Source: Trypanosoma brucei (taxonomy: Eukaryota). Taken from it: DNA of 64,000 bases. The translations under genes and the position numbers were made by a program. Positions 4,401 through 58,312 of the stretch are shown piece by piece (positions within the stretch are counted from its first letter, which is position 1; each line of letters starts with the position of its first letter). Below the pieces are notes generated by a model. It ran no database searches and was not told the origin of the DNA. It saw only the letters and a list, made by a program, of their open reading frames with translations. The DNA lies in assembly GCA_000002445.1 (NCBI GenBank), contig CM000208.1:3936001-4000000 (forward strand), written 5' to 3'.

Positions 4401-5859
4401 TTAAAACAGCAAGGCCACATAAGCAGCATCTATCAGATCCAATTTCTTGTTGACTAGAATAGAGGAATCTTTGCACTTGTTATCTTCCCATTTGCAACCA
4501 TCTTTGCAGTCCTCTTGTTTTTTCTTTTCGGAGCACTTTTAGTCAGTTTTTTTTCTCCTGCAGCTCCATCTTCTGTTCCTGCTGCTTTGGGTGCTTGTTC
4601 TGCTGCTTTTTTGTATCTAATGAGCATCTTTTGTCTTTTTCAGCCGCGGTTTCGTCCCACTTGCATGGGTCTTTGCAGTCGTGTTTTGATTGGTGTTTGT
4701 TACAGTCTGGTTCCTTTTTTTTCGGATGTGCTGTCTGGTCGCCTTCTATTTTTTGAAGCTGAGGCTGGTCTCCTTTGGCCGCCTTAAGATATTCCTGTAT
4801 CGCAATGCTGCGAAGTTGCCTTATTTCTGTTAGGGCTGCTATGTTTTGTGCTTTTTGGACTTTTGCTGTTTTCAGTTTGTCTGCGGCTTCCTGTAGCTTG
4901 GTTAGCCATGGTATCGTCATCTCGCCTCCGCCGTTGGCTTTGTACTTGACGCAGCCAGGGTTGGCGGCGCCGTTGCAGGTAGCCGCGTTTTTCGTGCCGA
5001 GTATTAAATTTTTCGCTTGGCTGCTGCCGGACTTGTCCTTTAAGCCGGTTATGAATGCTCCTATCGTTGCCTGTATTGCTGCTGCGCTAACTTTGGTCTT
5101 TCCGGCTGTTGGGCAGCCATCGAGTAGTTGTGCTGCGCATGTGTGGGCCGAGTTCTGATTCGTGTAGACACATACGCTGGCGCCGGCTGCTCCAAGGCAT
5201 TCGTCGGCATTGTTGCTCCCGCTGGTTGAGCTGCACAGGCAGACCATATCCGAGATCAGCGACATGCCCGGTTTGGCAGCCGCTGCCCCGGGTGCTGAGC
5301 ATGCGTTGGCCCCCGTCGCCCCGAAGCTTTCGCCTGCCGTCTGCGATAGCGATTTGGTCGGGCCGTAGAGTGCTGTCAGCAGCGCTTCTTCCACTTCCGT
5401 TTTCTTTAATGGTTTGTAATCTTCGCGTCTTTCTAGAGCCATCTCCAGGGTTCTATTTATTACAACTGCCGCTGTCTGCCGGGCGTGGCTGTTGAGCGGC
5501 CGGGTGATTTTCAGACCGTGGGCCTCAAGCTTATTTCCTGCAATCTGTTCTTTTGCTGCATGCCAGGCCGCGCGGTGCTTAACCCAATTTGCTTCTGTGA
5601 TCTTGTTATTTGGATCCTCCTTAAAGTCCTGGTTGTAGAAGTCGTCGTCTGCTACTGTTATATTTAGTTCTGTGAGCAAAGTTATTTCCTGACTTATAGC
5701 TGCGCCTTCGGTGTCTTCTGGCGTTTTTGGCTCCCCTCTTGCGATGTTTACAATTGCGCACAGGGTATGGTAGGCTGGTACGGCTTCATTGGCAGTTCCG
5801 CTGGCTTTGTACGCTAGTCGGGCAATGATCGCCAGCATTACAACAATGCTTGACTCCAT
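4401..5859 (-). pseudogene. VSG (A-type), near-intact; C-terminal GPI-signal exon out of frame
   Basis: 438-aa ORF 4543-5859 has a signal peptide, NITVADDDF, EEALLTALYGP, MVCLCSS, GCVKYKANGGGEMTIPW and CKDPCKWDE. The downstream frame 4401-4540 encodes KDGCKWEDNKCKDSSILVNKKLDLIDAAYVALLF*. The frame breaks at an A8 homopolymer with a TAA near 4540-4557. Confidence 0.8.
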
Positions 5860-8945: not shown

Positions 8946-9867
8946 ACGAGAATAAAAAAACCCTTAAAGCGATATTTTTGTGCAATGGCAACAAGAGGGG
9001 GTGTGAGAGTAAGCACGAACAATATTATTAAAGGAAAGAGAGAAAAATGTAGACAAAACATGGTTAGTTTTAATTAAAAAACAAATGAACTGAAAATGCA
9101 CAGGAGATGATGGAGTGGACAGAGATGGAGAGATTTAGTGCTATGTACATGGCTAATAAACACTTTACGTTATGTGCTATGATAGTGCTCTACACAGGAA
9201 AAAAACAAATCAACAGTATTCACAGCCCCACAAAAAGGCGAAGGAGGAACCACAGATTCTCCATATTTTACTCAAAAAATAATAACTACAACTAGAGAGA
9301 TTATAACAACTGTGTTTTTTATTCTGCTTATGAATCCTGATGTCAAGCGCTTAAACAAGAAAGTAAGCGTTCATAGTGTGAATGCAGATTTTCCGTTAAT
9401 ATAAGGACATTATTTTTTTTGAAATTTTCTTCGTGCCTTCGTGAGAGTTTCCCCCCACTGGCGCGGCCATCAGCCATCACTGTAGAGCCCTGAGATGCTA
9501 TCGATCTGTCGACTGTGGCAGAGTCTCCCTTTTTTATTAAGCCTAACACACCCTCTATAATTTTTGTTGTAACTCCGCATTTGAATGGAATACAGCAGAT
9601 CGGGCGAGAAGCCACCCACCCCGGACTCTCCAAAAGATGTCAATTAGCAATCCTTTTGTTTTGATTTTTGTTATTCGTTTATTATTCTCTCCCTCTCCCT
9701 CTCTTTCTGTTTCTGTTGCTTGTTGACTGCATACCCCTCTCTGTCTCTGAGGGTGTCTGGACTATTCCTGCGTCCGGTGCTTTTCCTGCTAGCTCCACTC
9801 TCGGAAATAAGGGGGGAAGTTGCAGAAGGGAGAGTGAGTTGTATGACTGTTACATTAGGTGAGGACT

Positions 9868-10800
9868 TCACCTGCGGCCGGCTCCGTTCAACCGCAATGA
9901 GAAATTGCGCCAGCCTTTTAGAGAAACATACATCTTGCACACACACACACCTTCTACCGCAAACCTGACACGTAACTCCTTCAAACCGGGACAGCTCATT
10001 AAGTGCAGCGACGTTTCTTCGCAGTCGCCGCGTTGGCTGGTAACAGCGCGCTCTACCTTCATACCGTTCATCTTCTTTTGATGTAGGGTGAGGCCAGTTT
10101 TGCTAGCACACTGCCTTCCGCATGTCTGGCACACCAACATGGATGCGTTTGTATGCGGGGAATCAGTGGCACACAATTTTGTGCTTTTGCTGCATTTAAG
10201 CTCGACTCCCTCACCTTTGTGGAAAGCCTTACAATGTCGGATGAGGGAGTCCCTGCAACTGAGCACTTTTTGGCACACACCACACTGCACCTCGCCCTTC
10301 CCCGGGACGTTAACATTTCCCTCACGGGCACGCTTACGAGGGAATTGCACCACCACCACGGTACCGTCCTCAGTCACTATGCTTTTATGTTTGAATTTCT
10401 TGTGTAGTGACAGGGAAGAGCGTGTACCGAAGCTCGCCTCACACAGGTCACATTGAAACGGCAGCTTCCGTGTATCCTGAGAGGCTGGCGCTGCTGGGGC
10501 TCTACCATCTCCTTGCAATGAGTTTTCGTTCTCTCGCCCCCTTTTCACGCGGCAACTACCGCTGCCTATGCCATGTATTGTTCTAAGGTGGTGTAATAGT
10601 CGGCCTGGCACTGCGAATTTGGAGGCACAGAGGGTACAATGAAGCACCTGCAGTCTCATCGGGACTCGTGTGCTCGATGGTAGAGGAACGATCGCCACCA
10701 CTGGAGAGGGTTCCGGGGGGATGTCCACTGCAGGTGTTGCATCGCCGTATTTGATCCTCCGGAGGGCATCAGCTCGCACAAACCCATGTTTGTTTACCAT
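9868..10800 (-). pseudogene. ingi C-terminal C2H2 zinc-finger domain segment
   Basis: 310-aa ORF with repeated C-x2-C...H-x3-5-H fingers: CTLCASKF...HHLRTIH, CDLCEASF...HKKFKH, CGVCQKVL...HCKAFH, CQTCGRQC...HQKKMNG. Confidence 0.7.
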
Positions 10801-10805
10801 GTGCG

Positions 10806-11405
10806 TTACAGCACTCGAGCGGCATTGGTATGTGGCATCACATTCCGTACATTTGGTCGGTTCGGAGGTTTTCTGAAGAGTGCATGTCGCAACAGGTGGG
10901 GTTGTTTGTATTGTATTGTTGGTCCTATCGCTGCATGTTTCTGGTTACACCATCGGCACTGTGAGGGCACACTCGGGTTGATCTTTCGCAACATCCATCC
11001 ATAGTGTCTTGAAGACCCAACCCGAAAGCGTGCCAGTGCCGTTTCTTCTTCCCTCGGCAGTTCTTCTTTATGTTTTGTTGGAAAGTGGTTGCCCGTGATA
11101 CCAAACCTATGAGTGTTCTCATGGACTTCTTCCGACCTAAGCACTCGCTTCGCATAAGCAATGATGTCGGGGATCCATGTGTCTCGCAACTGTGGTAAAT
11201 CTGCGGCCTTTTTGGCCATTTCATCACAAACCTCATTCCGTTTCACGCCACAATGGCCAAACACAAATTGCAGTCGGATACGCACCTTCCTTCTCTGAAC
11301 TTGAAGCAGAAGCCTCCATAGTCGTCTTAGAATTGGGTCCGTTACGGCTAGGGGGCCTGTCTGCAGTGCTTTTAACATTGACAGCGAGTCAGAGAAGATG
11401 GACAA
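10806..11405 (-). pseudogene. ingi RNase H domain segment (frame-shifted relative to the RT ORF)
   Basis: 199-aa ORF with RLQFVFGHCGVKRNEVCDEMAKKAA, an RNase H-like motif of ingi/L1Tc elements. Confidence 0.7.
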
Positions 11406-11600
11406 CCTGCTCGGTGTGCTTCTGTATGCCGGAAGCCATTTCAGCAGCCGTTGCAGTCCTATCTCTAATGCTACGCATTCCGCTCTGTAACTGCATTAGA
11501 GTTCCCCTGCTCCGGTTTTGGGTGCGCAAATCAGTGTATTGTTTCTATAGAGCAGGGCAGCTGCTCCGGACTCCTCACCGAGGGACACGGATCCATCAGT

Positions 11601-14600
11601 TCACAATTCGTAGTGCTCTCGTCGCGGTGGCTCCTTCCCCCTCCGTGAAAAATGCCGTGCAATCCACTTTTCGGAAGCCTCCCTTTTGACATCGTCAGGG
11701 TCATCAGCGCACACAGGCTTTATCTGCGTGTGAAATAGTCGTCGGCAGCTGTGGCGGAGCGTCGATGTCTCTAGTGGGTGCTCGCGTGGCTCAATGCGGA
11801 GGTGGGGATAGGACCGCATGATGCGGGAGTGTAGGGCTCTGACTGGGTGTTTGCTGTGATATACTTCCTCAGAACTGCGACGCAAACATCCGCCTCGTGA
11901 CTCACACATCAGCATGAATTTCATGATGCGCACAAGAGTGGTCGTCTTGAGTGGCAGGAGGTTTGCTTCCAGCAGAGAGTCCTCATTGCGCGTCCCATGC
12001 GGTATGCTAGCTATGATGCGACTGGCTTTGTGTTGCGCTGCTGCAAGGAGGTCGCGACTTCGTTCCGAAGCGTCCCAGTACCATACCTCAATGCCATACA
12101 TGGTGTGTGCCTGTGTGAGTGCTAGATAAAAAGCTCTCAGCACTTGTCGTCTTGGCCCCCATGTAGAAGCTGAGATGGTTGCTATCTGCAGTGGTCTGAA
12201 GTCCATCTTGCGTCTCGTTTCGGCCGTATGTGTTGCCATCCCCTGCAGACACTGGAATGTTACTCCTAGAAGCTTCGGTGTCCTGTCAGCTCCTATTCTT
12301 TCACCGTCCAGTTGTAATGTAAGGGGGTGGCGCTCTATACACCCGAAGAGTGTGCACTTTGTTTTCGCTACGTTGACAGACATGAAGTACTCTTTTGACC
12401 ACTGTAACACTACGTTGAGGCCGCATTGCAGTGTGTGGTTGATGACATCCCTCTCTGTGTGGCTCGCAAGTAGCGTTAGGTCGTCTGCAAAGAATCCGTG
12501 CTGCAGTAATGGCACTTCTGCAAGGCGTTGGCTCAACGAGTTCATGACAATAATGAACATGATTGGGCCAAGGACAGTTCCTTGTGGCACTCCTCGCTCA
12601 AATGTTCTGCTTCTGGAAAGCTTCTCCTTGAATCTCACTCTGCCAGTTCGGTTACTCAGAAATGATACGCACCACTTCACAATGTGGGGTGATACCTTCA
12701 TTCTGTGCATTTCCCTCGCAGTTTTGTCGTGGTCTACTGTATCGAATGCCTTCTCGTAGTCAACAAATACAGCACCCGTACGATATTGGTGCGTTGGACG
12801 GCAGAGGGCAGCGCGGACGTGCAGCAGTTGTTCGAGTGTTGAGCATCCGGGGCGAAAGCCTGATTGCTGCGGCGTCAGCTGGGACTCAACAGTGTCTCTA
12901 AGTCTCGCGGCAATTGTGTGCTCCATGACTTTGCAGAGACAGCTCGTGAGCGTCACAGGCCTGTAAGAATCGAGGTCCTCCGCCTTTTTTCCGGCCTTCA
13001 GGATGGGGATGATAACACCAGTCTTCCATGCAGGCGGGACGACTCCCGTTCGTAGGCTCTCATTGAATAGCCTCAGAACAACATTCAGCGCTGTTCTACC
13101 GAGATGTTGCAGTGCCTCGTTGTATAAGCAATCATGTCCGGCTGCGGATCCACTCGGTAGCAGTTTGATCAATCTCCGTAGTTCAGCCATCGTGATGGGA
13201 CTGAACTCACTCGCTATCGTCTTTATGGGTGCCGGTGGGTGTGAGTCGGGGTGCCTTCTTGCGCGGGACGAGTACAGTTTACTGAACCTCTCAGCTTGAC
13301 GGTAGTCCGTGATGGCCGCGTTATCTACAAGTACAGCCGGTGTTGTTAGTGGTCGTGGCGCATATATCTTCTTGACAATGTGCCAACTGCAGCGGTCTGA
13401 CACCGCAAGTCTGGAGCATAGCGTGCTCCATCTCTTCTTTGTGGTACGGTCCAGGATCTGCTTACGCGTGGCTACCAACTTTTCCCTTCGGTGGGAGGGT
13501 CCGCATCCAGCGATCTCTTCATCGAGTTTCGCGAGCTCAGGTGTCCAATGTGGTGGCGTTGCTCTGCAGCCACGGGGGACGGAGACCTTCGTCGCAATGC
13601 GGATGGCGGAGCTCAATTTCTGTTCCAGGGTGTTGACGTTCTTCTCTCTACCAATTTTCCTGCAGAGCTCGTCAACCTTGAGACGGAAATTCCTCCAGTC
13701 AGCTTTTAGCCATGCGTACATGGGCTTTCGAAGCCGCGGGCAACTCAGTGCATCTGTGTCGTCTCCAACGATAACGTCGAAAAATATGTGATGGTGATCG
13801 CTATCGGGAGAATACAGCGATGTCCACGTGTACACTGTGCAATTCCTTGACAGTGTCACATCAGGGGTGGACTCCCCGTGGTGGCGCGCGTACCTGGTGC
13901 ACTCACCAGTGTTGCAGACCAGAAACTGGTTGTCAATGCACCGCTGTGTGAGGGTTTCACCCTTGGTATTTGGTGGGCTCGCGCGATCCCATGCCAACGC
14001 GTGTGCGTTAGCGTCTGCACCGATGAGCTGGGCACCGTCAGTCGTCAGAAGCGTATCTAGGTCAGTTGCCGTGAAGGTGTGTTTTGGTGGGATGTATGCC
14101 GACGTGACAGTCAGCGCCGTTCCACGTGCAAGGTGAATTGTTGCATGCACTTGTTCAATGCGACCAACAAGGGCCATACCGGTCTCGACTGGTAGGTCCT
14201 CCCTCACTAGTATTGATACACCACCTCCTTTGCAGTTACAAGCTATTCCGTGATGTTGGTAGCCAGCAACGCTAAAGCAACCCGCCTCTCCAGGCGTCAT
14301 CCTTGTCTCGCTCAACAGACAAAAGGCGATCCGCTCATCAACAAGGGTTTTGTGGAGTGCTAATCTCTTTCCTTGAGATAGCCCGGCGCAGTTCCACTGC
14401 ATCCCGCACAACGACGGGCCGGGATTCTCTTCCACATCACCGGAAAGCAGCATCTTAGTGCGGATGATACTGCTGATGGCACGCTGGTACGTGCCCCGGG
14501 ACCGACAAATGAAGAACGGTGTCCCAACAAGACGCTGCTGATCCCTGTGCTGTATGATGCCGTAGCCGGAGCACAGCAGTGTTCCCCATGAAAGGAACGC

Positions 14601-14669
14601 TGCTGGCTCTTGGCTTCCCCCGATGATACGGGGTACTGGACCCTGGAACCACGTTGAGGTGGCCGGCAT
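11601..14669 (-). CDS. ingi ORF: N-terminal 2A peptide, AP endonuclease and reverse transcriptase polyprotein (intact 1022-aa frame)
   Basis: MLLSGDVEENPGP (2A consensus D[V/I]ExNPGP) at aa 72-84. The AP endonuclease/RT region contains the RT signature HGFFADDLTLLASH. Confidence 0.85.
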   Translation of the reverse strand: MPATSTWFQGPVPRIIGGSQEPAAFLSWGTLLCSGYGIIQHRDQQRLVGTPFFICRSRGTYQRAISSIIRTKMLLSGDVEENPGPSLCGMQWNCAGLSQGKRLALHKTLVDERIAFCLLSETRMTPGEAGCFSVAGYQHHGIACNCKGGGVSILVREDLPVETGMALVGRIEQVHATIHLARGTALTVTSAYIPPKHTFTATDLDTLLTTDGAQLIGADANAHALAWDRASPPNTKGETLTQRCIDNQFLVCNTGECTRYARHHGESTPDVTLSRNCTVYTWTSLYSPDSDHHHIFFDVIVGDDTDALSCPRLRKPMYAWLKADWRNFRLKVDELCRKIGREKNVNTLEQKLSSAIRIATKVSVPRGCRATPPHWTPELAKLDEEIAGCGPSHRREKLVATRKQILDRTTKKRWSTLCSRLAVSDRCSWHIVKKIYAPRPLTTPAVLVDNAAITDYRQAERFSKLYSSRARRHPDSHPPAPIKTIASEFSPITMAELRRLIKLLPSGSAAGHDCLYNEALQHLGRTALNVVLRLFNESLRTGVVPPAWKTGVIIPILKAGKKAEDLDSYRPVTLTSCLCKVMEHTIAARLRDTVESQLTPQQSGFRPGCSTLEQLLHVRAALCRPTHQYRTGAVFVDYEKAFDTVDHDKTAREMHRMKVSPHIVKWCVSFLSNRTGRVRFKEKLSRSRTFERGVPQGTVLGPIMFIIVMNSLSQRLAEVPLLQHGFFADDLTLLASHTERDVINHTLQCGLNVVLQWSKEYFMSVNVAKTKCTLFGCIERHPLTLQLDGERIGADRTPKLLGVTFQCLQGMATHTAETRRKMDFRPLQIATISASTWGPRRQVLRAFYLALTQAHTMYGIEVWYWDASERSRDLLAAAQHKASRIIASIPHGTRNEDSLLEANLLPLKTTTLVRIMKFMLMCESRGGCLRRSSEEVYHSKHPVRALHSRIMRSYPHLRIEPREHPLETSTLRHSCRRLFHTQIKPVCADDPDDVKREASEKWIARHFSRRGKEPPRREHYEL
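14418..14441 (-). other. 2A self-cleaving (ribosome-skipping) peptide DVEENPGP within ingi ORF
   Basis: Reverse complement of ggccgggattctcttccacatc encodes DVEENPGP, followed by S. Confidence 0.85.
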
Positions 14670-14949
14670 CGTCAGGGGGTACAGCAGAAAAACGCCGGCG
14701 GCGAAAGCAGCAAACTAATAGCCAACGCGACACAAGCAACAGCGTGGACAACAGCAAACGGCAATCTAAGAACTGCAATGGGAAAATTACGCGGCGGTTT
14801 TCCAAAAGGAACTGCACACAAAGCAACAGCGCAAGCGATCATCTCAGCAGAGACAAAATCCATTCCCTAATCCGAGTAGCAAGCAACATAGGATACCTAG
14901 GCTGGTACGCACAGACGGGATGCGACGGCAGCCCTGACAACGGATTGTG

Positions 14950-15618: not shown

Positions 15619-15634
15619 TGATATATTTTAACAC
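15619..15634 (+). promoter_or_regulatory. VSG 3'UTR 16-mer, perfect (TGATATATTTTAACAC)
   Basis: Exact match about 75 bp after the VSG stop. Confidence 0.85.
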
Positions 15635-20865: not shown

Positions 20866-21065
<200 letters not shown>

Positions 21066-28791: not shown

Positions 28792-28807
28792 TGATATATT
28801 TTAACAC
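28792..28807 (+). promoter_or_regulatory. VSG 3'UTR 16-mer, perfect
   Basis: TGATATATTTTAACAC. Confidence 0.85.
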
Positions 28808-28943: not shown

Positions 28944-29078
28944 TTAGGTTAGTTGGGTTAGGGTTAGGGTTAGGGTTAGGGTTAGGGTTAGGGTTAGGGT
29001 TAGGGTTAGGGTTAGGGTATTGAGGGTTAAGGTGGTGAGGGTTAGGGTATTGAGGGTTAAGGTGGTGAGGGTTAGGGT
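28944..29078 (+). repeat. Interstitial telomeric repeat tract: about 11 perfect TTAGGG units, then two copies of a degenerate variant unit
   Basis: GGTTAGGGTTAGGG... from about 28955-29018, then GGGTATTGAGGGTTAAGGTGGTGAGGGTTAG twice. The G-rich strand reads 5'->3' on the plus strand, the polarity expected for a chromosome end lying to the right. Confidence 0.9.
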
Positions 29079-29536
29079 TTTTACTTTTTGGATCATTTTT
29101 TATTTCACTTCTTATTAATTTTTTATTTTTTTATAATTCGTTAATTTTTCATTGTAAGTGATGCAGAGGCCTTTTTTGATGCGCAATCTCAAACACATTC
29201 GTACAGTATTCATCTTGGTCTTCATTTTTTTCGCATGAAGCATCAACGTGGTTTATTACGCTTTTGCTTATTTTTCTCGTGTCAATTTTACCTCTGCGTT
29301 TTGCGCTGCGCGAGGCTTCAATTTTTTAAAACGCTAGCGCGTGGCAATTTCGCTAGGAGAAACGATTTGCTATTCAGGTGCCCTAAAAATTTTTTTATTA
29401 TTTGAAACTGGCATAATATGGAGTTTGGCAGCTAAAGCCAGCCGACATAGCAGCTTGGACAGGTCGTACCTTGGCACAGCAACCCAACAAATGCGAGCGG
29501 AGCTCTCAAACAAATAGCTGAAGCAGCAGAAGGACA

Positions 29537-33407: not shown

Positions 33408-33423
33408 GAATATATTTTAACGT
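33408..33423 (+). promoter_or_regulatory. VSG 3'UTR 16-mer, degenerate (TGAATATATTTTAACG)
   Basis: 3 mismatches to the consensus, about 90 bp after the stop. Confidence 0.5.
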
Positions 33424-33555
33424 TTTTTGATGAAAATTTGAAAATCAGTAGAAATCATTAAATATACGTATAAAAGTTGCTTGTGGGTGTAAATTAGTAT
33501 GGTAACAAGATATGGATAATGAGCACTTTCTCAACGCATTTCCACTTTTGTTTTT

Positions 33556-33905
<350 letters not shown>

Positions 33906-37495: not shown

Positions 37496-37689
37496 CATAT
37501 TGAGGATATTTGCTCAATTTTATGAAAACTTTCTATTTTAAGATAATTTGATATGTTTTAATACTTCTTAGTGAAAATGTACAAATTATTTAAAATCTGA
37601 ACTTTGGTGTGAAACTGCCTTATGGGTAATAATTGAAGTTTAATATGATATGAAAATTTTATTTTTTGCTTATTTTACTTTTTTGTTAA

Positions 37690-39327: not shown

Positions 39328-40850
39328 ATGAATTATTTTTGTATAGGTGTTCTGATTGCTGTTGCTACAGCAGCAGTCAGGGCCGGAAATGTCCACAACG
39401 GCCAAAAAACCGAAGTTTTCGGAGCCTTATGCGAGCTAGCGCGCTTGTTACAAAACGCACCAGATGTTCCAGAGGCGCTCACAACCAAAACAGGAGACTA
39501 CAAGGAGATAATCAAGCGTAACATGAGCGTCGCAGACAGCTCATGGAAACAGTTATTCGCCGACAGCAAAACACCAGATCAATGGGCGACAGAAAGGCCA
39601 AAAAAAGGCGCAGCATAGGCAGACTGGGACAAAATGTGGGATGACTGGAGCGAAGCCATTAGGAGCCTCGAGGATACTCCTGGGAATACAAAAGCCACAG
39701 AAAAGCACTACTCTCAGCTATCACCCGCCCAACTTCAGCTCGCCAAGGCAGAACTGGCCCTGATATCCAACACAGCAGTCGAGTTAGCCACACTGGCACA
39801 GGCACAGGAACCATCGAGCAGACTGATAAAATCAACAGATATCGCAACGGAGATGAAAAAACTCTTTGTCGGAGACAAATCAGCGACGGTAACGGGCGCA
39901 ACGCGGGATCAGGTGTTCGGAGCCGGATCAGCTTCCATCAACTCACGAGAATCTGCCTGCACAACGACGCCGAACGGCAAAATTCAAACATTGCTGGCGG
40001 TAATGAGCTGTATATGCCAGGGAGAGCAAAGTGGCCAAATTGAAGACATTTGTTTCAATGGACAAACAGCCGCCAATGTTTGGGAAGACAATGGCGCGCC
40101 AAAAAACAACGCCGCAAAGGAAATAGCACAAAAATGCACCGCAGACGATCACAAACAGAAAACTACATACCGCACGATACGTCGAACACTAAACAACATC
40201 AACCGGCTCGTAACCACCAAATCCGGAAACACGTACCTCGGAGCATTCGAAACCAGCAGCGATGGTCAACAAGCCAACGGCAGATGCATAAAATGGCCGA
40301 ACCTCAAAACCCACGCCGTAGTAAAGGACGCCAGCACGCCGTGGATCAGCAGTGTTGCAGCGCTAGGAAGAGCATTACGCGGCAGAATCAAACACAATGA
40401 CAACATCAAATCAAAACAGGTAGCCCCCAAGAGACTAGCTGACCAATCCGCAGCATTGGAAAACGAGATAAATGTGGCGAGCAAACATCAGCGCTAACAA
40501 AGCAGCATACAACTCAAAGTGGCACATCAGGAAGCGTCTGCCTAGAGCACCGCAGCAACAAAACCCGTGGTGAAGCAGGCTGCAAATGGCATTAAGGGGC
40601 CGACAACAAGGATAAATGCTAACCAGATGAAAGTAAAGTAAAGACTTATACAAGTGCAGAAACAGGAGAACAAGCAGGTGCAGGGAAAGCATCTACAACA
40701 GAGAAATGCAAAGGAAATTGGAACCGAATGCGCCAAGGCCCCTGAATGCAAATGGGAGAATAATTTTTGAAAGGACTGCAGTTTTTTTCGTAAAAATAAG
40801 AAATTTTCTCTTTTTTCTGCAGCTTTTGTGAGTATGGTAGCATTTTAAGG
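39328..40850 (+). pseudogene. VSG pseudogene (in-frame TAG at 39616-39618; degenerate C-terminus with stops)
   Basis: Signal peptide MNYFCIGVLIAVATAA, then FGALCELARLLQ and NMSVADSSWKQLF. The same-frame continuation at 39634-40497 has MSCICQGE and GRCIKWPNLKTHAVVKDASTPWISS. The C-domain remnants EAGCKWH.. carry stops. Confidence 0.8.
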
Positions 40851-40928: not shown

Positions 40929-41089
40929 TTTTGATAAAAATGTATAAATTTTTAAGAAACAAAAAATAATAATATATATATATATTTAGAATCTAAGTAA
41001 AATGTGTATGATATGATATGAGTATAAAGTAATATTGTGATAGGGTATTACAATTGGGTGGTATTCTAATTTTGTTTATTTTGTTTATT

Positions 41090-41173
41090 ATATGGATATT
41101 AAGAGAGATGTGGAGTAGTTTATGATAATGATACGAGAGGGTTGTGAGTATGTGTATACTAATACAATAAGAG
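41090..41173 (+). repeat. 70-bp repeat (single unit, degenerate)
   Basis: GATAATGATACGAGAGGGTTGTGAGTATGTGTATACTAATACAATAAGAG. Confidence 0.6.
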
Positions 41174-42643: not shown

Positions 42644-43740
42644 ATGCCGATAACTCATGCCGTCTTTGCAATGGCCGCCGCCATAATAACGGGCAATCAA
42701 GGAGCAGAACCTGTCATTGGTACAGGCGCCAACCGGCGGGAGTTCGGTGCCATGTGCACTGTGCTACGGTGGACCTCAACGACATTCACTACCGAAGCAG
42801 CTGACTTGGACGACGACGGGATTTACAACAGCATAACTGAGATAAACTTGACCCTCGCGGAGCCATCGTGGAGCGCAACATTCCTTCAAGAAGGACAGAC
42901 AGACAAATGGCAGTTAACGCTACTACCTAAGCACGCATAAAATGCCGCTTTAAAAAAATGTGGGAACGCTGGGCACCAGCAGTCCAGAGAGTGGGGAAAG
43001 AAGCTGGCATACCACACAAGCTAAAAACGCTCAAAGCGGATGACTTCAAAGCCGACGAACTGCAAGCACGCAGGCGAACAGTAGGAAAAATAACAAGGAG
43101 GGCCACAACCTTGCACGAAAAACTAGGGGTTCAAAACAGAAAAGAAAGGAAGGTAACTCCGGATAAAATAAAGAACGGAATGTCCACGGCCTTTATAGGA
43201 AAAAAAGAGGGGAGGTTATGGGTGGACCTTGTAGAAGCCGAGGTGATCCTCACTGGAGGGAACACAAATGCCAACAGGGTCACCGGCTGCAAAAACACCA
43301 ACGTAGCCAATAACACAGGGAAAAATCTAGTGGCCGTAGCTCTTTGTGTATGTGCCAACAGGACAACGGGAAGTGCTGTGCAAGACACATGCTGGTCCGA
43401 AACGGCGGCGACTGTGGCATATCCGACAAGTGCGGGGAAAGTTCCAACGAAGATACAAGATCTAATCAAAATGTGTGGCGCCCAGAAACTAACAAAGCTG
43501 ACAGCAGCGGCCGTAGAGCAAGCACTAACCACAATAGCGTCGTCAGTTACAATCACGGCGACAGGCGCGTACATTGGAAAATTCCTTGCAACAGGTTGTA
43601 AAGGGGCACAAGACAGTAGTGTATGCTTCTGGTATAGCACGCTGAAACAACGACAAAAACAGATTTGAACGTAATACCGTGGTACAAAGAGCTTGCAGAC
43701 CTCGCCTCTGAACTCGCTTCAGATTAAGCTCTAGACTCAG
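42644..43740 (+). pseudogene. VSG fragment 1: complete N-terminal domain only (frameshifted), part of a compound VSG pseudogene
   Basis: Signal peptide + EFGAMCTVLRW and INLTLAEPSW. The second frame has VAVALCVCANRTT and ...VCFWYSTLKQRQKQI*NVIPWYKELADL (end of N-domain). No C-terminal domain follows. Confidence 0.7.
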
Positions 43741-43799
43741 CATATGACCCAATAGTAGCGGAATCAGCAGCGTTGAAGATCGAAGCACGAGTGAGTTCG

Positions 43800-45060
43800 A
43801 AGCAGTGAATTGCCATCAGAGACAACAAAAACCCTAGTAGCAGCAAAAAATAATGCAGCTATTGCAACAGCGGCAGCATCGACCAACCGGCAAACCTCAA
43901 CACAGACTGGAAAGAAAAATGATCGACGTGGACGGCTGCAGCTATGGTTGCCAACATCAAAGGGGCGGCAGACAAAATAAAGAAATATCACGTACTATAC
44001 GCAGCCGACGCGAGCCAACTACGAGAAACTAGTGTCGACGTCAGCCAAATGGCAGATGCAGCATTCGACGTCTACTCAGCGGCGGCAAACAAAGAAGAGA
44101 TCAAAACAGAAGAAGCCATGATAAAAGAGCTGAGAGAAGCACTAACAGGCAACGAACCCGTTGACAGCGCAAAGGCACTCACAAGCATGGCACAAACATA
44201 CGACGCTGCGTGTAACAGCGGAGCAACAGCAGCAGCGAAAACAACACTCGGTACTCTTTTCTGCTTCTGTGTAGTACCACACCTAAAAACCAAAAAAAAC
44301 ATGTATCGGGTGGTGCACCCATCTAACCTGGTCGGCCAGCAATGAACCACAGGTGGCCACTTACAACATACTACGAAAAATGCGCCTGCAAAGAACCACC
44401 AATACTATCACGAATCACAAACTCACGGCGGCGGTGGAGAACATCGAAAACAAGCTGACAGCCACTTCGACGACCGCCATGCTAGGCGAAGCGACGGCCA
44501 CATGTGACGCATCAAATACCGGTGCGTGCATAAAGTACCAAAACGCAGCGACCGGGGACGTTGTGGAATTTAACAAAATACCCTAGTTGGTAAAAATAAA
44601 AACGATAGCGCAGTGGCTACAACAAAGAGAGCAACGAAACGCAGCTAACAAGCTAGCAACGGAAGAACTCGAACGGCTAAAGAGACTAGTGTCTAAGATA
44701 GCAACTCACGCAAACAGACGGCCCAGCCCAGCCTATTCACATGCCCCAGCTAGCACAACAAACACAGCTAACCCCAAGCCGCAGCAAGAAAAATACTGCC
44801 CAACGATAACAAACCCGGATGAATGTAAACCAGACGCGGGATGCAAAAATAACTCTACAACTAACAAATGCGAAAAAAATCCAAAAAAATCGGTTGTGCA
44901 AGCAACCCAAGCAACAGAAGGGCCATCAACCGCAAGTGGGTGTGCAAAACACGGAACCGATAAAACCGCTTGTGAAAATGACAAAAATGTAAATTGGAAG
45001 GAAAAATGCAAAGATTCCGGTTTTTGTATATAAGAAATTGGTTAGGATGGCTGTTTCTTT
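43800..45060 (+). pseudogene. VSG fragment 2: 5'-truncated VSG (mid N-domain through C-domain and degenerate GPI signal)
   Basis: ORF 43944-44345 has ELREALTGNEPVD and LFCFCVV. ORF 44353-44586 has GACIKYQNAATGDVVEFNKIP(W). ORF 44587-45033 has the C-domain CPTITNPDECKPDAGCKNNSTTNKCEKN...CENDKNVNWKEKCKDSGF. This is a second IPW-containing N-domain end within 2.4 kb, so two genes are juxtaposed. Confidence 0.7.
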
Positions 45061-45149
45061 TGTAAGCTTGCTGTTTTACATTTTCTATAAATTCATGGTT
45101 TTTTAAGGATTCTTCCTTAATTTTTAAAATTAAGGGAATTTCACTGGTG

Positions 45150-48100
45150 ACGCCGAACACCTAATCATGGTGCCAGGGTCTATTACTACGTCCAAGAGTA
45201 AGCCAAATACAAGCATTATACACGATCCAACAGAATTGGAGCGGGAAACAGGTTTTCTGCTACCAGAAAAGGAGCAAGCAGAAGCATCAAACTCTGGGGT
45301 GAAGAAATATATTATACTGCTCCTCTGCGTGTGCAAGCGTGCTTTGCTACATGTGAAGCGAAACATGCTGCTTATTAACTGGACGTTGAGAAGAATACTC
45401 TTCCCATGATTCAAGGAGTCAAGTGGAACACTGGGGTGTAACCTCAAGTAAAACGACTTGCCTTGGAGAGGCGGCTTCAAGAGGATTATTTTGTCTTCTG
45501 CCTATTGCAGGATAGGAGCGTGGCCCCGGTGGAATCTACTGTGCTTAAAATAATGGATACCAGCATGTAGGTTTAGAAAAAACACCACATAGGGGTTGCG
45601 TTTTAATTTTAGTGAAAGATAGAGTGGGAGTAGAAGTGTGTCAGTTGGCAAACGAGTCCCAGAAATAGTGACAGCAATGCTACAATTTTTGGCTGATGTG
45701 AATTTTACAGTCACTTAAGTTTATTTTCCTAGAAAATCGATGGTTTCAAAAACATAGTTGGAACAATAAGCAGTAAAAAGCAGACCTCTGGTAGTAGGGG
45801 CAGATTTCAACTCACATCATGAGTTATGGAACCCAATGCAGAATAATAACAGCAAAGGGGAATGTATTGTGTATTTGTGTATCGAAAACGATACTAAGAT
45901 AGCAAACACAAGAAAAGAAACCCGTCGTCAGGCTGGAACGGCTGTATTGCCTTAAACAGACATCGCAATGAACAGACTGTGAGGTATTAAATTGGAAAAT
46001 TACACTGAGTCCTAAAAGCGACCATTTTTTGAATCACTTTTGATGTTCTGTTTGGTGATGGTACAGAGGCGATTGTATCTTCAAAACCTGCCAAGGCTTT
46101 ATACGTGTGGAATAAAGTGGGATGAAAAAACATCCGAAAAGTTATTGTTACGTTCTTTTCAACAAGACTAAAGAGAAAAATAAAGGATGCCGATGCACTA
46201 AATAAAGCCATCAGGAGAAGCATAAGACAAGCAGCCAAGAAAACCATAAGGAAGGTAAGGGTATAGAACCGCCTTTCTAGACGAAGGAATTGACAAAATA
46301 GGTAAGCAGACAATGAAGTGTCTGGACGAAAGCATGAGAGATGCACCGGGTATATGAAGAAGAAAAAAAGTGCTTGCAGACACGACCCTTTAGAGATGGA
46401 AGAAAAAGGTCTTCAAATTGAAAGTCACAAATCCTGTGAGCTGGAATATCGTTAAGTCCATTTACACTCCCCTTAGTTTTAGATTGCCAGTAATGGTAGT
46501 AGATGGACATCCATTTACTAAGTGCCAGCAGGCACACAAGCTTGCAACAATGTACATGGAGCGGTCAACAAAGACACTAGGAGCACCGAACATGCAAATT
46601 CCGATCGCCAGGAAAAGGACTTTCACACCAACTACAGAAGCCGAACTGGAAACTGCAGTAAAAGAGCTCTCCTCTGTAAATGCTTCGGAATACTACGAAA
46701 TTCATTGCGAAGAATTCAGACAGCGTGGAACGATTGGTCAAAGAGCTGTTGAGACTATTTAACTGCAGTGTGAAAAACAGTTAACTTCCGAAAAATGGAA
46801 ACCTTTTATAATTATTCCGCTGCTAAAGCATAATAAACTTGCGACAAAAATGGCATCATTCAAACCAGTGACACTACAACAAGCTGTAACAGAGAGATTA
46901 ACAGGAGAAAAAAGAAGCAGCAGTATTTATTTATCATGCTAGATTATTTGACTCTGTAGATCACCGATATAGAAACAAGGCACTACACGAATTCGGAATG
47001 AAGTTGCACCTGTTTGCCTGGATAGCGCGGCTTTTATAAATTAAGGACTGCACGAGTAAGAGTCGACAACACGAAGTCAGAAAAAATACAGCTAAAATGC
47101 GGCGTCCCCAACAGTTAGTGCTAGGCCTACTACTGTTTAATGTAGCAGTAGCCCATACTCGCTAAGTTCAATAATTAAAATGATTCCAGGATTGGCGTAT
47201 GGATTGTTTGCTGATTACCTCACAATAATGTGCTCATCCAAAATATTCGAGAGATCAGGAAAACAGTACAGATAGGACTTAATTGTACAGAAAAGTTGCC
47301 AGCGTTGCACTTCATGGAGATGCCAGTGATAAAGGGGAGTATACGCTATTTGTATCTAGGGACACAAACCGGATAAGACTAAAAGTTGGGGAAAGCTTTA
47401 AAGGAAAATAGAACTCCAAAGCAACTAGGATTGACAATACAGCCACATAACGGACGAAGTAAGCAAACATCCACACTTCCTACAAACAGCAGAAAACATG
47501 TGACTAATGAAGCTTATGGCAGTGGTCTCGCCAGAATGGAAACTAAGTAGGAAGACAATAAGAGCATTCTATTTATCTCTAGTTCAGTCGAACTTAGTTA
47601 TTGTATAGTGTCATGGTCGTTTAATGTATCGCCTTCGGAAAGGGAAAAGTTGAAAAAACAACATAAAATGCTGCTCACATTGTGGAAGTGATACCAAAAT
47701 CAGCAAACAGATTTAATGCTCTTTTAAATGTTAGTTTAAAGCCACTAAATAACGAATTAGCACATTGTAGAGCCATTGAATACTATCTGAGGGTTGAAAG
47801 TCAGGGGAGCAAAGTACGATAAAAAAGCGGCGAATAAAATGTTCCCACCAGAACATCCAATTCACATACAAAAGGAAAGTGTAATACATATATATGGCGA
47901 AACAGAAAAAACACGAAAACCACAAGATACAACTGTGCTTAAAATGGAAAAGTGAGTACATTTTAACATCAAGCCACCAGGGGCCTAAAAGATGACGCAT
48001 AAGACAAAGATAAGAAACTACAAACAATGAAGTAGGTAAAGTGTTTTAAAAACTATTACTATCAAGTATGGACAGATGAATAGGTAGTGTTAGATGTCTG

Positions 48101-50380
48101 CTCAGGTGCAGGAACGATAATGTCACACTCAATGGGAAAAATTAGGAAAGTACATATGGGTGCTGGATCGGTGGCATGCAGCTGTAGGGCGGAGAGTATA
48201 GCAATAGAGGCAGATCTCAAACGGCTCGTAAAGATATTGAGGACAATGAAAAAGCACAAAAACAAAAGTAGCTATATTCACAGACTCATTGTTGCTCTTA
48301 ATGAAGCTTAAAACTGAACATGGAGTAGTAACAGAATCGATACTGAAACGAATGTGAACATTAATTCTTCATATTGTGAGGCTAAGAGTAGCGGTCAACT
48401 TCCAGTTTGTATTCTCACACTGCAGGGTCCCAAGAAATGAAGCAGTTGACAAAGAAGCAGAGAAAGACGATAAAATGCTAAGGGCATATCCAGCATGGAT
48501 CACGGACATAGTCACATGTATAGAAAGGCAAATCCATCGAGAAGGGGACAATGAATTCTAAGAGGGAAAAACATTACAAACACACCACAGTGCTCCACTC
48601 AACCATATTAAACCTACTCATAACAAAGTTCAAAATGGACAGGATAGAGGAAATCATTACAAACGCAATTTATAACAGGCACCTTGAAACAATTCGGATG
48701 GCTACATCATGTGTTCACAAAAACAACAGAGTGGCCTGATTGTAGATAGCGTCGTGGTGACTATGTGGAACTGGATACAGCTGTTAATGGGAAAGCGAGA
48801 AGTACACAGAACGATAATACGGAAACACAGTCATCACAGGTATTGGTAAGACAAAATGAGCCCATAATATCCCCGTTGTGCAACGTGGTGCGTGCACGTC
48901 GTCAAACTAGAGTAGTTTGCCTGATAAAGAAACACGGTTCAGAAAAGGAAAGAGCACTGGAAATGACAAAGATTGCAAAATTGGCAGTTAAGGCATATAA
49001 AGGTAACTAAGACTGCCATGTTTGTGAAATGAATTTTGGGAGAAGTGGTTTACTAGTGGAGCACATGGTCACACATACAAGGAAATGATATCGCAGGTTG
49101 GGAATCAACAGAAAAGGAGCATAAAAGAAGAGGCAGATGAGGAAAAAGAAAAGCTAGGGTGTCGATGGTTCCATATGAAATATGTGTTGTATGGATGGTT
49201 AAAAAGGAATATGCTAACAAAACATCCTGAATAGCAGCAAACAGAAGACAAAAAATGAGAATCAACCTGCAGATCATAGCATGGATGATACAGAATAAGG
49301 AGGATAGAACTGGAGTGTCAAAGGTGTAAAATAATTCTAAAGAGTAAAACTTAACTGACCAGACACAAATGCATTCCAAAGTCAGACAATACTACAGGAG
49401 ACTTCAAAGAGAAAGAAAAGCCACTTAAAGAAAAATGCTCCATGTGTGGAAAGAAGTACCATTAGAGTTGACTTCTTTGTCATATGCGTGAAAAAAACAA
49501 GACACAATGAGTCTTTGAGTTCAAGGTAGCAAATAAAACATTCAAGAGCCAGGAAAGGATCCTTGTAAGATCATTTAGTGAGAAAAAAGGCATTTCAAGA
49601 GGCAGGGGAAACAATTGATTGGAAAAGACCGAGAAAAGGCCAAAAATATGGAGGCACACAGTACTAGAAGAAGGAATAAATTTTGTGTGTGCAAGGTGTG
49701 ATAGTGCATACAAGACACAACACTCACTGGTGTGGCACACACGAACCTACCATAAGGTGCCACAACTGTTAAAAGGAAGAAGAAAGATGAATTGGTAATA
49801 ATAACTCCTACAATGCAGGAAACGACCCAACGCCCGTACTGCCCAATGAGGTGCACACAGAAGCAGTACCGGACAAGGCATCTTCAAGAGAGACACGGTA
49901 AGCCGAAGAAGGAAGCAGTGTAAAACTTGCTGAAGGTCAAATGTGAGGAGTCACCAACCCATCCACTGGTGTGCCCGATATTACTTCCACTAAGGAAAAA
50001 AAGGTATAGAGAGCCTGAAGGAAAAGAAAATATATAACAGTGGCAGCTGGCCCAATTCCTAATGGGTATCTTTAAAATAAGTGGCCACAATGAACCCACT
50101 CTATCCTCTTACAAAAAAGGAAATACAATCAAGAAGTAAAAGGGAGAAGATCGCCAGAAAAGCTGAATATCCCATCCCCATCTTCCCAGCCGTTGGTATT
50201 ACAGACATTCCATAATATGGAGGGGACAAAACGCCATTTCGAAATTTTTTCCCTAGTAGAGACAAAAAAGGAACAGTATCAATGGAGGAAGCGAGGACTG
50301 ATTCATGGCTATTTAAACATCTTCCAAAGATATGCAGAGTATAGAAAGTAGCAGAGCAGCTAATGAAGCACATGTAGATT
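45150..50380 (+). mobile_element. DIRE (degenerate ingi-related element), plus strand
   Basis: Colinear degenerate homologues of the ingi ORF. ORF 46418-46762 (VSWNIVKSIYTPLSFRLPVMVVDG...) matches ingi CSWHIVKKIYAPRPLTTPAVLVDN... ORF 48376-48561 (LRVAVNFQFVFSHCRVPRNEAVDKEAEKDD) matches the ingi RNase H RIRLQFVFGHCGVKRNEVCDEMAKKAA. C2H2 fingers occur at 49011-49088 (DCHVCEMNF...HMVTH), about 49685-49760 (CARCDSAYKTQHSLVWHTRTYH) and about 49828-49890. It is riddled with stops. The boundaries are approximate. Confidence 0.7.
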
Positions 50381-50560
50381 AATTTCACAATGAAAAAGAA
50401 TAAGAAATTTTTTCTAATTTTTGCTGCCTATGTAAGATTATTATTTTTTTAAAATCAAGAACTTTAAAGTTTTAAAAGATTTTGCTCTTTTTTTTATTAA
50501 TTTACTATTCTAATATATTTAACTTTTATTGATGAAAATGTGAAAATTTGGTAAAAATTG
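50380..50560 (+). other. VSG 3'UTR-like remnant downstream of the DIRE
   Basis: CTAATATATTTAACTT (16-mer-like) followed by TTGATGAAAATGTGAAAATTTGG, the same motif found 3' of other VSGs here (54150-54180, 57640-57660). Confidence 0.5.
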
Positions 50561-50644
50561 TATTATATTGGACTATGGGTGTAAAGTAGTAGTATAATAG
50601 TGTATGAAAAGTGACTGGTACTCTAATTTATTCATCTTATTTAT

Positions 50645-50740
50645 TTTATAGATATTAATTATGGTTCGAATAGCAATGGTAACAGCAAGGTAGTGATAGG
50701 AGAGTGTTGTAAGTGTGTATATACTAATATTATACAAGTG
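50645..50740 (+). repeat. 70-bp repeat (single unit)
   Basis: GTGATAGGAGAGTGTTGTAAGTGTGTATATACTAATATTATACAAGTG, preceded by the TTTTATAGATATTAATTATGG boundary. Confidence 0.7.
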
Positions 50741-54063: not shown

Positions 54064-54289
54064 TATTTTTACTCAATTTTATTAAATTATATGTTTAGAG
54101 GAAATTTTCTAAATTTTTCTGAAATACGCTAAAAAATCATAAATTTTACCACATTTATGATGAAAATGTGAAAATGAGTAAAACGTTTTTTGATATTTTT
54201 GTGAAATATACATGGTTTTTACCTACACGTTCAACGTAGTATGGTAATAGTGTATGAAAATGTTTTTCTATTTGAATTTATTCATTTTG

Positions 54290-57625: not shown

Positions 57626-57641
57626 TAATATATTATAACAC
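57626..57641 (+). promoter_or_regulatory. VSG 3'UTR 16-mer variant (TAATATATTATAACAC)
   Basis: 2 mismatches, followed by TTTTGATGAAAATGCGAAAACTG. Confidence 0.6.
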
Positions 57642-57779
57642 CTTTTGATGAAAATGCGAAAACTGATGATGAATCAATTAATATGGTATTTTCTACGATA
57701 ATTTTTTATGAGCGTAATGTTGTAGGATAACCGGGTGTTAAAACTTTATTATTCTGTCTATTTTATTGATATTAATAGT

Positions 57780-58312
<533 letters not shown>

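Follow-up and report, generated by a model that had tools for sequence, protein, structure and literature searches.

Retroposons of the DIRE, ingi, and RIME types are dispersed through the silent VSG arrays of Trypanosoma brucei, where they are a documented feature of the subtelomeres. One degenerate group, TbDIRE2, comprises eight copies that belong to the ingi6 subclade and are related to elements of T. congolense and T. vivax (PMC3820030). The target-site duplication of the ingi clade is reported to be strictly conserved at 12 bp, a lenient criterion of at most four mismatches being applied to vestigial duplications, and the ingi6 subclade has the upstream target signature TTTTxxxxxA^Axxxxxxxxxxx (PMC3820030). 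The VSG 3'UTR is itself marked by a 16-mer, TGATATATTTTAACAC, on which the abundance of VSG mRNA depends, as does m6A in its poly(A) tail (PMC5698767; bioRxiv 10.1101/2020.01.30.925776).

The locus described here lies in a 64,000-nucleotide stretch of T. brucei contig CM000208.1 (the window, to which all coordinates refer) and consists of a DIRE at the 3' end of a silent VSG pseudogene. Such an arrangement is an ordinary feature of the VSG arrays; a DIRE beside a VSG tail is already known in kind, and little changes beyond the annotation. The locus serves as a worked example in which the termini of a fossil retroposon are fixed to the base by means of live relatives in sister species.

Identity and Extent of the Element

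On homology that runs from end to end, the sequence at 45142-50398 belongs to the trypanosomatid ingi/L1Tc clade of non-LTR retroposons, of which it is a full-length but dead member, that is, a DIRE; its last six bases are a poly(A) remnant (Table 1). An initial annotation had placed an ingi-like element between about 45150 and 50380, expected it to align to ingi or to DIREs over most of its length, and assigned to it colinear degenerate homologues of the ingi reverse transcriptase, RNase H, and C2H2 fingers. The element is real, and tblastn recovers these domains in the ingi order. The whole of it can be aligned, as protein with the ingi copy of the window and as nucleotide sequence with T. 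congolense and T. vivax elements, but its bounds have to be corrected to a start at 45142 and an end at 50392. An endonuclease, a 2A-like motif, and the Pr77 hallmark, absent from that annotation, are present as well.

Table 1. Features of the DIRE, its VSG flanks, and the ingi copy of the window
Feature	Position	Strand	Remarks
T. brucei ingi copy	14677-9413	-	potentially active T. brucei LINE
Composite VSG pseudogene	42958-45084	+	left of DIRE
Left flank, 57 nt of VSG 3'UTR	45085-45141	+	holds TAAGGATTCTT...AATTTTTAAAATT motif
Degenerate ingi-clade retroposon (DIRE), full-length	45142-50392	+	5251 bp; both termini set by homology
Pr77/79-nt hallmark of L1Tc/ingi-clade elements (CACTGGTGACGCCGAACACCTAATCATGGTGCCAGGGTC...)	45142-45216	+	DIRE 5' end
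2A-like motif remnant DVEKNTLP	45382-45405	+	ingi counterpart DVEENPGP
2A-like plus AP-endonuclease remnant	45382-46248	+	tblastn to ingi ORF residues 78-364
Reverse-transcriptase remnant	46361-47834	+	tblastn to ingi ORF residues 402-935 and P0001 residues 572-946
RNase H remnant	48250-48630	+	best-preserved part of DIRE
Four degenerate C2H2-type zinc-finger motifs	49014-49995	+	weak colinear tblastn to ingi zinc-finger ORF
Conserved family 3' terminus (...GATTAATTTCACAATG), then vestigial poly(A) AAAAAG	50367-50398	+	
Right flank part 1, VSG GPI-signal remnant NKKFFLIFAAYVRLLFF	50399-50452	+	17 intact codons plus stop
Right flank part 2, spacer, degenerate 16-mer, and TGATGAAAATGTGAAAAT	50453-50560	+	
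Next 70-bp repeat core	50700-50724	+	start of next VSG cassette; exact match to GAGAGTGTTGTRAGTGTGTATATAC

Both termini are defined by comparison with sister-species elements. The 5' end, CACTGGTGACGCC at 45142, parallels the T. congolense start CCCTGGTGACGCC; the 5' ends of these two elements can be aligned from the first base onward, and the terminal sequence C(C/A)CTGGTGACGCC is common to the DIRE and the elements of T. congolense and T. vivax. The hallmark of the DIRE matches the 5' end of the window ingi at 28 of 38 positions (z~7), with a score reached by none of 300 shuffles. An Rfam scan of 44900-50700, in which an HDV-like or L1Tc ribozyme was sought, matched no family. At the 3' end the last bases, ...CACAATG, extend to 50392 and precede the A-run. 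The segment 50367-50407 matches positions 1494-1534 of the T. vivax locus L003 at 78% (blastn). The T. vivax element ends in ...GATTAAAAGCACAATG followed by A20 and the T. congolense element in ...TAAATACACAATGAAAAG, so that CACAATG plus an A-run forms the 3' end in all three alike.

The lineage of the DIRE is that of the T. congolense and T. vivax ingi-type elements and not that of T. brucei ingi, to judge from nucleotide alignment: it aligns colinearly with the former at four loci, with 63-78% identity (blastn) over a range from 45121/45141 to 50407, whereas nucleotide similarity to the T. brucei ingi of the window is absent outside the 5' hallmark. Database searches point the same way. Their matches for the DIRE are T. 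vivax and T. congolense proteins only, with E values down to 3e-194 and 40-41% identity for the reverse transcriptases, and no T. brucei protein occurs among the homology-search results. Exact look-up of the proteins of three window ORFs gave no record, and no second T. brucei copy was recovered for comparison. Amino acid identity to the T. vivax protein P0001 is 37-57%, and a colinear tblastn chain with the window's own ingi ORFs has about 31%.

The domains are heavily decayed. A Pfam scan of stop-masked frame translations of the DIRE recovered the endonuclease alone (Exo_endo_phos_2, E 2.5e-7); the reverse transcriptase and RNase H were missed by the single-frame HMM because their remnants are too fragmented. 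The catalytic FADD of the reverse transcriptase has become FADY (47207-47218). The RNase H remnant retains 57% identity to P0001 residues 1035-1163 and 39% to the window ingi ORF that bears Pfam RNase_H, and toward the 3' end the segments 49013-49068, 49667-49746, and 49827-50022 find blastn matches in the 3' parts of their T. congolense and T. vivax counterparts. Stop codons number 94-97 per frame. The best alignment, 556 codons against P0001, holds 20 of them (about one per 28 codons), the P0001 tblastn HSPs are scattered across all three frames, and the longest ORF that overlaps the DIRE (119 aa) lies on the opposite strand. Judged by these lesions, the element has lost its coding capacity and is enzymatically inert.

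The Flanking VSG Tails

The VSG pseudogene to the left of the DIRE is assembled from two partial VSG_B N-terminal domain pieces (Pfam, 42958-43668 at E 1e-29 and 43944-44345 at E 7e-8) and a C-terminal domain, and it has few breaks over about 690 codons (ORFs of 236, 133, 77, and 148 aa). This tail carries its own GPI signal, encoded at ~45020-45084, which is frameshifted and has its stop codon mutated to TAC; the 57 nt of UTR that follow reach the first base of the DIRE and contain no 16-mer. The last bases of the flank, TTAAGGGAATTT, lie near the usual 16-mer start, with no 16-mer after them, and the left UTR probably stops where the 16-mer is expected. When compared with a VSG-tail profile built from eight intact VSG tails of the window, the sequence at 44985-45125 matches positions 17-145 (E 1e-10, 35.6 bits). 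In pairwise comparisons with other UTRs the left flank scores above 498-500 of 500 shuffles, and it also aligns to the stretch just 5' of the 16-mer in the VSG at 37549. A reading of its terminal 44 nt as a decayed end of coding sequence (KDSSFLVNKK) was rejected, the mean score being 17.8 against coding-sequence ends and 33.5 against UTRs. The only 16-mer-like element downstream of the left VSG is 5.37 kb away; this VSG appears to have been severed from any 16-mer, an element that VSG mRNA needs for its stability, with an orphan VSG tail lying 5.3 kb downstream.

The right tail opens at the NKK codons of a GPI signal; after the stop codon come a spacer, a 16-mer in degenerate form, TGATGAAAATGTGAAAAT, and the next 70-bp repeat. 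Its opening part is coding in character. The NKKFFLIFAAYVRLLFF region matches profile positions 65-105 (E 2.6e-5, with no shuffle above 0 bits), the GPI signal is 78% identical to 40792-40832 (blastn), and 12 of 16 residues agree with the VSG signal NKKLDLIDAAYVALLF at 4451(-) by hand count. The segment 50393-50460 scores 37 against the GPI-signal coding at 40780-40850 (shuffles 15.4+-2.7, 0/1000 reaching the score), and its score against the VSG tail at 4470-4395(-) is reached by one shuffle in 1000; against a UTR the match is not significant, 105 of 1000 shuffles doing as well.

The remainder of the right flank resembles the distal part of a VSG tail. An AT-rich spacer of 58 nt (50453-50510), which has no significant match among the other UTRs, is followed by the degenerate 16-mer TAATATATTTAACTT, with 12 of 16 positions matching and one gap, and by an exact TGATGAAAATGTGAAAAT. 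The latter motif occurs five times in the window at three or fewer mismatches (0.17 expected), the canonical 16-mer 11 times (1.3 expected); at three or fewer mismatches no canonical 16-mer is found in either flank. The segment 50512-50547 is 89% identical to 33409-33445 and 84% to 57626-57662 (blastn), and 50453-50560 takes up profile positions 168-223. The right flank as a whole is colinear with the complete VSG tail at 40.8 kb (GPI signal at 40792-40832, the 16-mer, then 40997-41102). The next 70-bp repeat core, a pattern found nine times in the window with none expected, lies about 150 nt past TGATGAAAATGTGAAAAT, the usual spacing for the array. As far as the motifs tell, neither flank is a functional VSG 3'UTR.

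In the initial annotation these flanks were the two halves of one VSG 3'UTR, set about 5.3 kb apart by the inserted DIRE. Much of that description is sound. VSG-type 3'UTR sequence does follow a degenerate GPI signal on the left, although it spans 45085-45141 and not ~45060-45150, and a 16-mer-like element (50511-50525) and TGATGAAAATGTGAAAAT (50530-50547) do precede the next 70-bp repeat (core at 50700-50724). The DIRE thus adjoins a VSG 3'UTR, but the flanks are not its halves. In VSG-tail profile coordinates the left flank covers 17-145 and the right flank 65-224, so that about 81 profile positions (65-145) occur on both sides of the DIRE and the overlap amounts to about 110 nt. Joined in silico at any plausible junction, the flanks did not resemble a contiguous VSG 3'UTR: they gave two separate profile matches and never one, and the right side opened with GPI-signal coding. 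The joined sequence would have about 155 nt ahead of the 16-mer, where intact UTRs of the window have roughly 55-95 nt (hand counts). It is the coding sequence on the right, the overlap, the two matches, and the over-long stretch before the 16-mer that defeat the reading of a single split UTR. By profile homology, the DIRE is flanked by two overlapping VSG gene tails.

Target Site

A 12-bp target-site duplication was sought at the ends of the DIRE; none is convincing, the best candidate matching at 8 of 12 positions (empirical P 0.08). The octamer AATTTCAC, found at 45137-45144 and again at 50381-50388, was considered as an 8-bp duplication and rejected, because its right copy lies inside the conserved family 3' terminus (TAAAAGCACAATG in T. 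vivax) and the last bases of its left copy, CAC (45142-45144), open the DIRE. In the T. congolense element of L002, an internally deleted copy used as a positive control, only 6 of 12 positions of the 12-bp duplication match. A target-site duplication is absent also from the near-intact ingi of the window (4/12, hand count), which suggests that recombination around retroposons is common here. Upstream, the left flank (ATTT-TTAAA-A^T...) agrees with four of the six specified positions of the ingi6 signature, a motif easily met by chance in an AT-rich UTR; the T. congolense flank of L001 agrees at all six. The left flank is also similar to the sequence that borders the T. congolense element, and these two likenesses would fit an original left junction.

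History of the Locus

The history that we consider probable begins with an old insertion of the DIRE into a VSG tail, after which recombination or gene conversion swapped one flank. Target-primed reverse transcription would in the distant past have placed the DIRE in the 3' end of a VSG gene. VSG arrays are constantly reshuffled by recombination, and this process would later have replaced one of the flanks, either through ectopic recombination between two DIRE copies or through a VSG-cassette conversion that ended at the DIRE. An exchange inside the DIRE presupposes that another VSG tail harbored a second copy, and one exactly at its end calls for a non-homologous or microhomology junction; neither has been observed.

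The newcomer is more likely to be the left flank, since the left VSG pseudogene is so little broken in comparison with the stop-ridden DIRE and since it is moreover made up of two VSG pieces. The argument concerns stop density in the coding part only, global identity to other VSG tails being much the same for both flanks (58-61%). Segments of VSG pseudogenes may be under some selection as donors for mosaic genes. A related argument, which took the greater decay of the right flank (16.5 versus 35.6 bits in the profile score) as a sign of greater age, was set aside as weak; the best paralog matches of the two flanks are similar (72-89%), which counts against it.

A single insertion with an abnormally long target-site duplication of about 110 nt, which would begin at the NKK codons and stop just short of the 16-mer, seems unlikely, even though a duplication by its very nature leaves overlapping flanks and one event would suffice. 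The first strand would have been nicked within the GPI-signal codons, at the canonical signature, and the second about 110 nt downstream, the left copy being homogenised later with other VSGs. The two segments are nearly equal in length (112 nt at 45030-45141 versus 110 nt at 50400-50509), and the right copy opens, directly after the poly(A) remnant, at AATAAGAAATTT, which in VSG tails is preceded by TTTT-N5-C/A in keeping with the signature (PMC3820030). A duplication of this size, however, departs from the strict 12 bp of the clade (PMC3820030). Moreover, the segments are 61% identical, which is not above the identity of either to unrelated VSG tails (56-61%), and their GPI peptides have only 7 of 16 residues in common (hand count).

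The match of the NKK codons, with the TTTT-N5 that precedes them, to the endonuclease target signature is also the ground for a more speculative proposal, to which we give little credence. VSG tails may have been a preferred landing site of this extinct lineage, and the flanks might then be explained either by the ~110-nt duplication or by the DIRE acting as a barrier to conversion tracts at its 5' end. If this were true, the limits of VSG recombination units would be marked by retroposon fossils and in part shaped by them.

It is quite improbable that a single insertion by target-primed reverse transcription entered one VSG 3'UTR just 5' of the 16-mer and that the right flank is the remainder of that UTR. 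The left UTR does halt near the 16-mer site, with the next 16-mer-like element on the right, and the left flank partly fits TTTTxxxxxA^A (PMC3820030) as well as resembling the T. congolense flank. Yet about 110 nt separate the DIRE from the 16-mer-like motif, and an open GPI-signal remnant of 17 codons takes up their first 54, with a highly significant likeness to VSG coding tails (0/1000 and 1/1000 shuffles) and none of significance to UTRs. The in-silico junction resembles the UTR of the VSG at 54137, with a score of 29 that 56 of 1000 shuffles reach, but the joined flanks produce two overlapping profile matches. Similarly, the 8/12 agreement between adjacent 12-mers falls within the four mismatches allowed to vestigial duplications (PMC3820030), but has an empirical P of 0.08.

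There is finally a slight chance that the DIRE inserted at or beside the junction of a pre-existing partial tandem duplication of VSG tails, in which one UTR was fused to another's GPI signal: VSG arrays are rich in fragmentary and composite pseudogenes (the left VSG being two pieces), and UTR and GPI coding share short stretches (AAGxxAATTT) that could mediate illegitimate joining, but the insertion point must coincide with the junction within a few bases and there is no significant 12-bp duplication.

On the favored history of insertion and subsequent flank exchange, the flanks of the DIRE record a later rearrangement of the array. The arrangement also bears on the left VSG pseudogene as a donor, which has no 16-mer and offers only about 120 nt of tail homology; if it served as one, a conversion tract would have to stop before the DIRE or carry 5.3 kb of junk into the recipient.

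Comparison with Known Systems

Both flanks are recognizable as VSG-tail sequence of the canonical kind, and on the right the 16-mer and TGATGAAAATGTGAAAAT keep their usual spacing from the GPI signal and the 70-bp repeat. They differ from a canonical VSG 3'UTR in that the left UTR is without a 16-mer and the right 16-mer is degenerate, with 12 of 16 positions and one gap. The T. brucei ingi of the window shares with the DIRE its clade, length (~5.25 kb), domain order, and 5' hallmark, but ingi keeps ORFs of 1022, 199, and 310 aa and the DIRE keeps none. With the ingi-type elements of T. congolense and T. vivax (P0001-P0006; L001-L004) the DIRE is colinear from first base to last and has termini in common; those elements have long ORFs and poly(A) runs of up to 20 nt, whereas the window copy is fossil and belongs to another species.

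The closest parallel is with the degenerate elements already described in T. brucei. Apart from a 12-bp duplication that is no longer recognizable and flanks that are two overlapping VSG tails, nothing essential separates the window copy from TbDIRE2. Like TbDIRE and TbDIRE2, it is about 5 kb long and combines a 5' Pr77 hallmark with colinear stop-saturated domains, AAAAAG being the probable remnant of an A-rich tail; like TbDIRE2, it has its closest live relatives in T. congolense and T. vivax. The partial fit of its upstream flank to TTTTxxxxxA^A may be a further likeness, or may be due to chance.

A decayed, full-length DIRE

The initial annotation placed a DIRE with degenerate, colinear ingi homologues within a VSG 3'UTR, and the element itself is borne out by a chain of tblastn matches, by the density of stop codons, and by alignment to relatives in T. 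vivax and T. congolense. With the ORFs of the window's own ingi as probes, the tblastn chain is colinear at ~25–50% identity. Each forward frame carries 97–99 stop codons in the region 45100–50420 and 94–97 in the delimited element, and the best protein alignment contains one stop per ~28 codons. Motifs have decayed, from DVEENPGP in ingi to DVEKNTLP and from FADD to FADY; in a stop-masked frame the endonuclease is the sole Pfam domain recovered, and an Rfam scan of the element gave no match. The 5' hallmark of the clade agrees with that of the window ingi at 28 of 38 positions (score reached by 0 of 300 shuffles), and outside it no nucleotide similarity to ingi was found.

Positions of the principal features in the window
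Feature	Position	Strand	Content or basis
Nearly intact T. brucei ingi	9413–14677	-	ORFs of 1022, 199 and 310 aa: RT + endonuclease, RNase H, zinc fingers
Interstitial telomere repeats	28955–29079		(GGGTTA)10, then degenerate copies
VSG pseudogene left of DIRE	42958–45033		Tandem pair of incomplete VSG_B N-terminal domains, Pfam positions 95–315 and 116–210
2A-like motif and AP endonuclease remnant	45382–46248	+	tblastn, ingi residues 78–364
RT remnant	46361–47834	+	tblastn, ingi residues 402–935
RNase H remnant	48268–48543	+	tblastn, ingi RNase H ORF
Four C2H2-like motifs	49014–49995	+	tblastn, ingi probes

In a large protein database, the conceptual translation of the DIRE matches retroposon proteins of T. 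vivax and T. congolense only (E 3e-194, 40–41% identity). Because loci of these species also align with it colinearly at the nucleotide level (63–78% identity, from 45121/45141 to 50407), the element is a DIRE of a lineage still alive in both. Extinct T. brucei copies of such elements, eight "TbDIRE2", have been assigned to the ingi6 subclade (PMC3820030). The proteins of T. vivax Y486 and T. congolense IL3000 are themselves 88% identical over 1106 aa without gaps, very high for these species; this could stem from horizontal transfer, from assemblies contaminating one another, or from slow change in an active lineage.

The DIRE begins with CACTGGTGACGCC at 45142, to be compared with CCCTGGTGACGCC in the T. 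congolense element (locus L001, 4869). At its 3' end, 50392, it closes with GATTAATTTCACAATG and then AAAAAG; among the relatives, GATTAAAAGCACAATG plus A20 closes the T. vivax element and TAAATACACAATGAAAAG that of T. congolense. Since both ends correspond to those of the relatives, the DIRE is full length, at 5251 bp.

The array and the flanking VSG tails

The window is a silent VSG array of the Trypanosoma brucei type. Pfam VSG_B domains are found in its ORFs; the canonical VSG 16-mer (TGATATATTTTAACAC) occurs 11 times at ≤3 mismatches (1.3 expected), and 70-bp-repeat cores 9 times (0 expected), accompanied by long TAA/ATA tracts. Pure tracts of up to 158 units lie beside repeat cores at 57801–58274, 33649–33834 and 20872–21020; such tracts are typical of 70-bp repeat regions, their length at 57.8 kb being unusual. 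As far as ~9 kb the VSGs are on the minus strand; from ~15 kb they are on the plus strand, and the minus-strand ingi sits at the switch, abutting a 5'-truncated plus-strand VSG tail that ends at 15634. About 150 nt upstream of the interstitial telomere repeats is a VSG tail with a perfect 16-mer at 28792, which looks like a once-telomeric VSG, now array-internal.

Eight intact VSG tails of the window yielded a profile of 234 positions, which takes in the end of the CDS, the GPI signal, the stop codon, the UTR, the 16-mer and lastly the downstream motif. The left flank (44985–45125) matches profile positions 17–145 (E 1e-10). Its last 57 nt (45085–45141) are UTR: they are significantly similar to other UTRs, align much better to these than to CDS ends, and in a gapped alignment reach the point where the 16-mer starts in the VSG at 37549. 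Within this UTR, at 45115–45135 and 6 nt upstream of the 5' end of the DIRE, the sequence CCTTAATTTTTAAAATTAAGG forms a near-palindrome of 21 nt; a weaker one (AATTTT...AAAATT) occupies the same place in other VSG UTRs of the window.

The right flank (50399–50561) matches profile positions 65–224 (E 8e-5). Its first 17 codons make up an intact frame, NKKFFLIFAAYVRLLFF*, of the length and register of GPI signals in other window VSGs (e.g. NKKFSLFSAAFVSMVAF); by manual count the peptide is identical to NKKLDLIDAAYVALLF at 12 of 16 positions. In DNA comparisons against the GPI-signal coding sequence of the VSG at 40.8 kb the start of the flank scores 37 (shuffles 15.4±2.7, 0/1000 reaching 37), and against the VSG tail at 4470–4395(-) it scores 25, reached by 1/1000 shuffles; a score of 25 against a UTR is not significant (105/1000). 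By blastn the entire tail of this VSG at 40.8 kb has a colinear counterpart in the flank, at nearly equal spacing and in the order GPI signal, 16-mer region, stretch leading to the 70-bp repeat.

History of the locus

From their places in the profile, the two flanks overlap over ~81 positions, and one simple insertion leaves them unexplained. Most likely, an ancient insertion of the DIRE into a VSG tail would have been followed by exchange of one flank. Bearing on this history, the left VSG pseudogene (ORFs of 236, 133, 77 and 148 aa) is far less disrupted than the DIRE, and with its two tandem partial domains it is a composite of two VSG fragments. The window ingi likewise has no target-site duplication, its flanking 12-mers agreeing at only 4 of 12 positions.

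Of the alternatives to flank exchange, the most plausible is that the overlap represents a target-site duplication of ~110 nt. The overlapping segments are 61% identical, but neither is closer to the other than to unrelated VSG tails, so the proposal gains no specific support. A duplication of 12 bp is reported for the ingi clade, and TTTTxxxxxA^Axxxxxxxxxxx as the subclade's upstream target signature (PMC3820030). Here the 12-mer that precedes the DIRE (TTAAGGGAATTT) and the one after the tail remnant at the best offset (ATAAGAAATTTT) agree at 8 of 12 positions (P 0.08, from an empirical null drawn from AT-rich sequence of the window). A repeat of AATTTCAC at both junctions was rejected as a target-site duplication, its right copy being internal to the element. 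Somewhat less plausibly, a tandem VSG tail may already have been in the target before insertion. Least plausible is the original proposal of one 3'UTR split in two: the DIRE does adjoin VSG 3'UTR sequence, but the right flank starts with GPI-signal coding sequence, and the joined flanks gave two separate profile matches, never one contiguous UTR, at each of three candidate junctions.

The 16-mer is required for high levels of VSG mRNA (PMC5698767; bioRxiv 10.1101/2020.01.30.925776). The left VSG lacks it and the downstream copy is degenerate; both tails are probably non-functional relics of the array. The DIRE is of a familiar type and lies where such elements are usually found, so interest in the locus is low, the overlap of its flanks being a minor oddity. 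The T. congolense relative of the DIRE (L001, 4869 onward) likewise lies just downstream of VSG_B-type genes (L001, 1456–4252), with a 5' flank that agrees fully with the TTTTxxxxxA^A signature and is similar to the left flank in the window (TTTTTCTTAAAATTAGGAACAGG against TTTTTAAAATTAAGGGAATTT).
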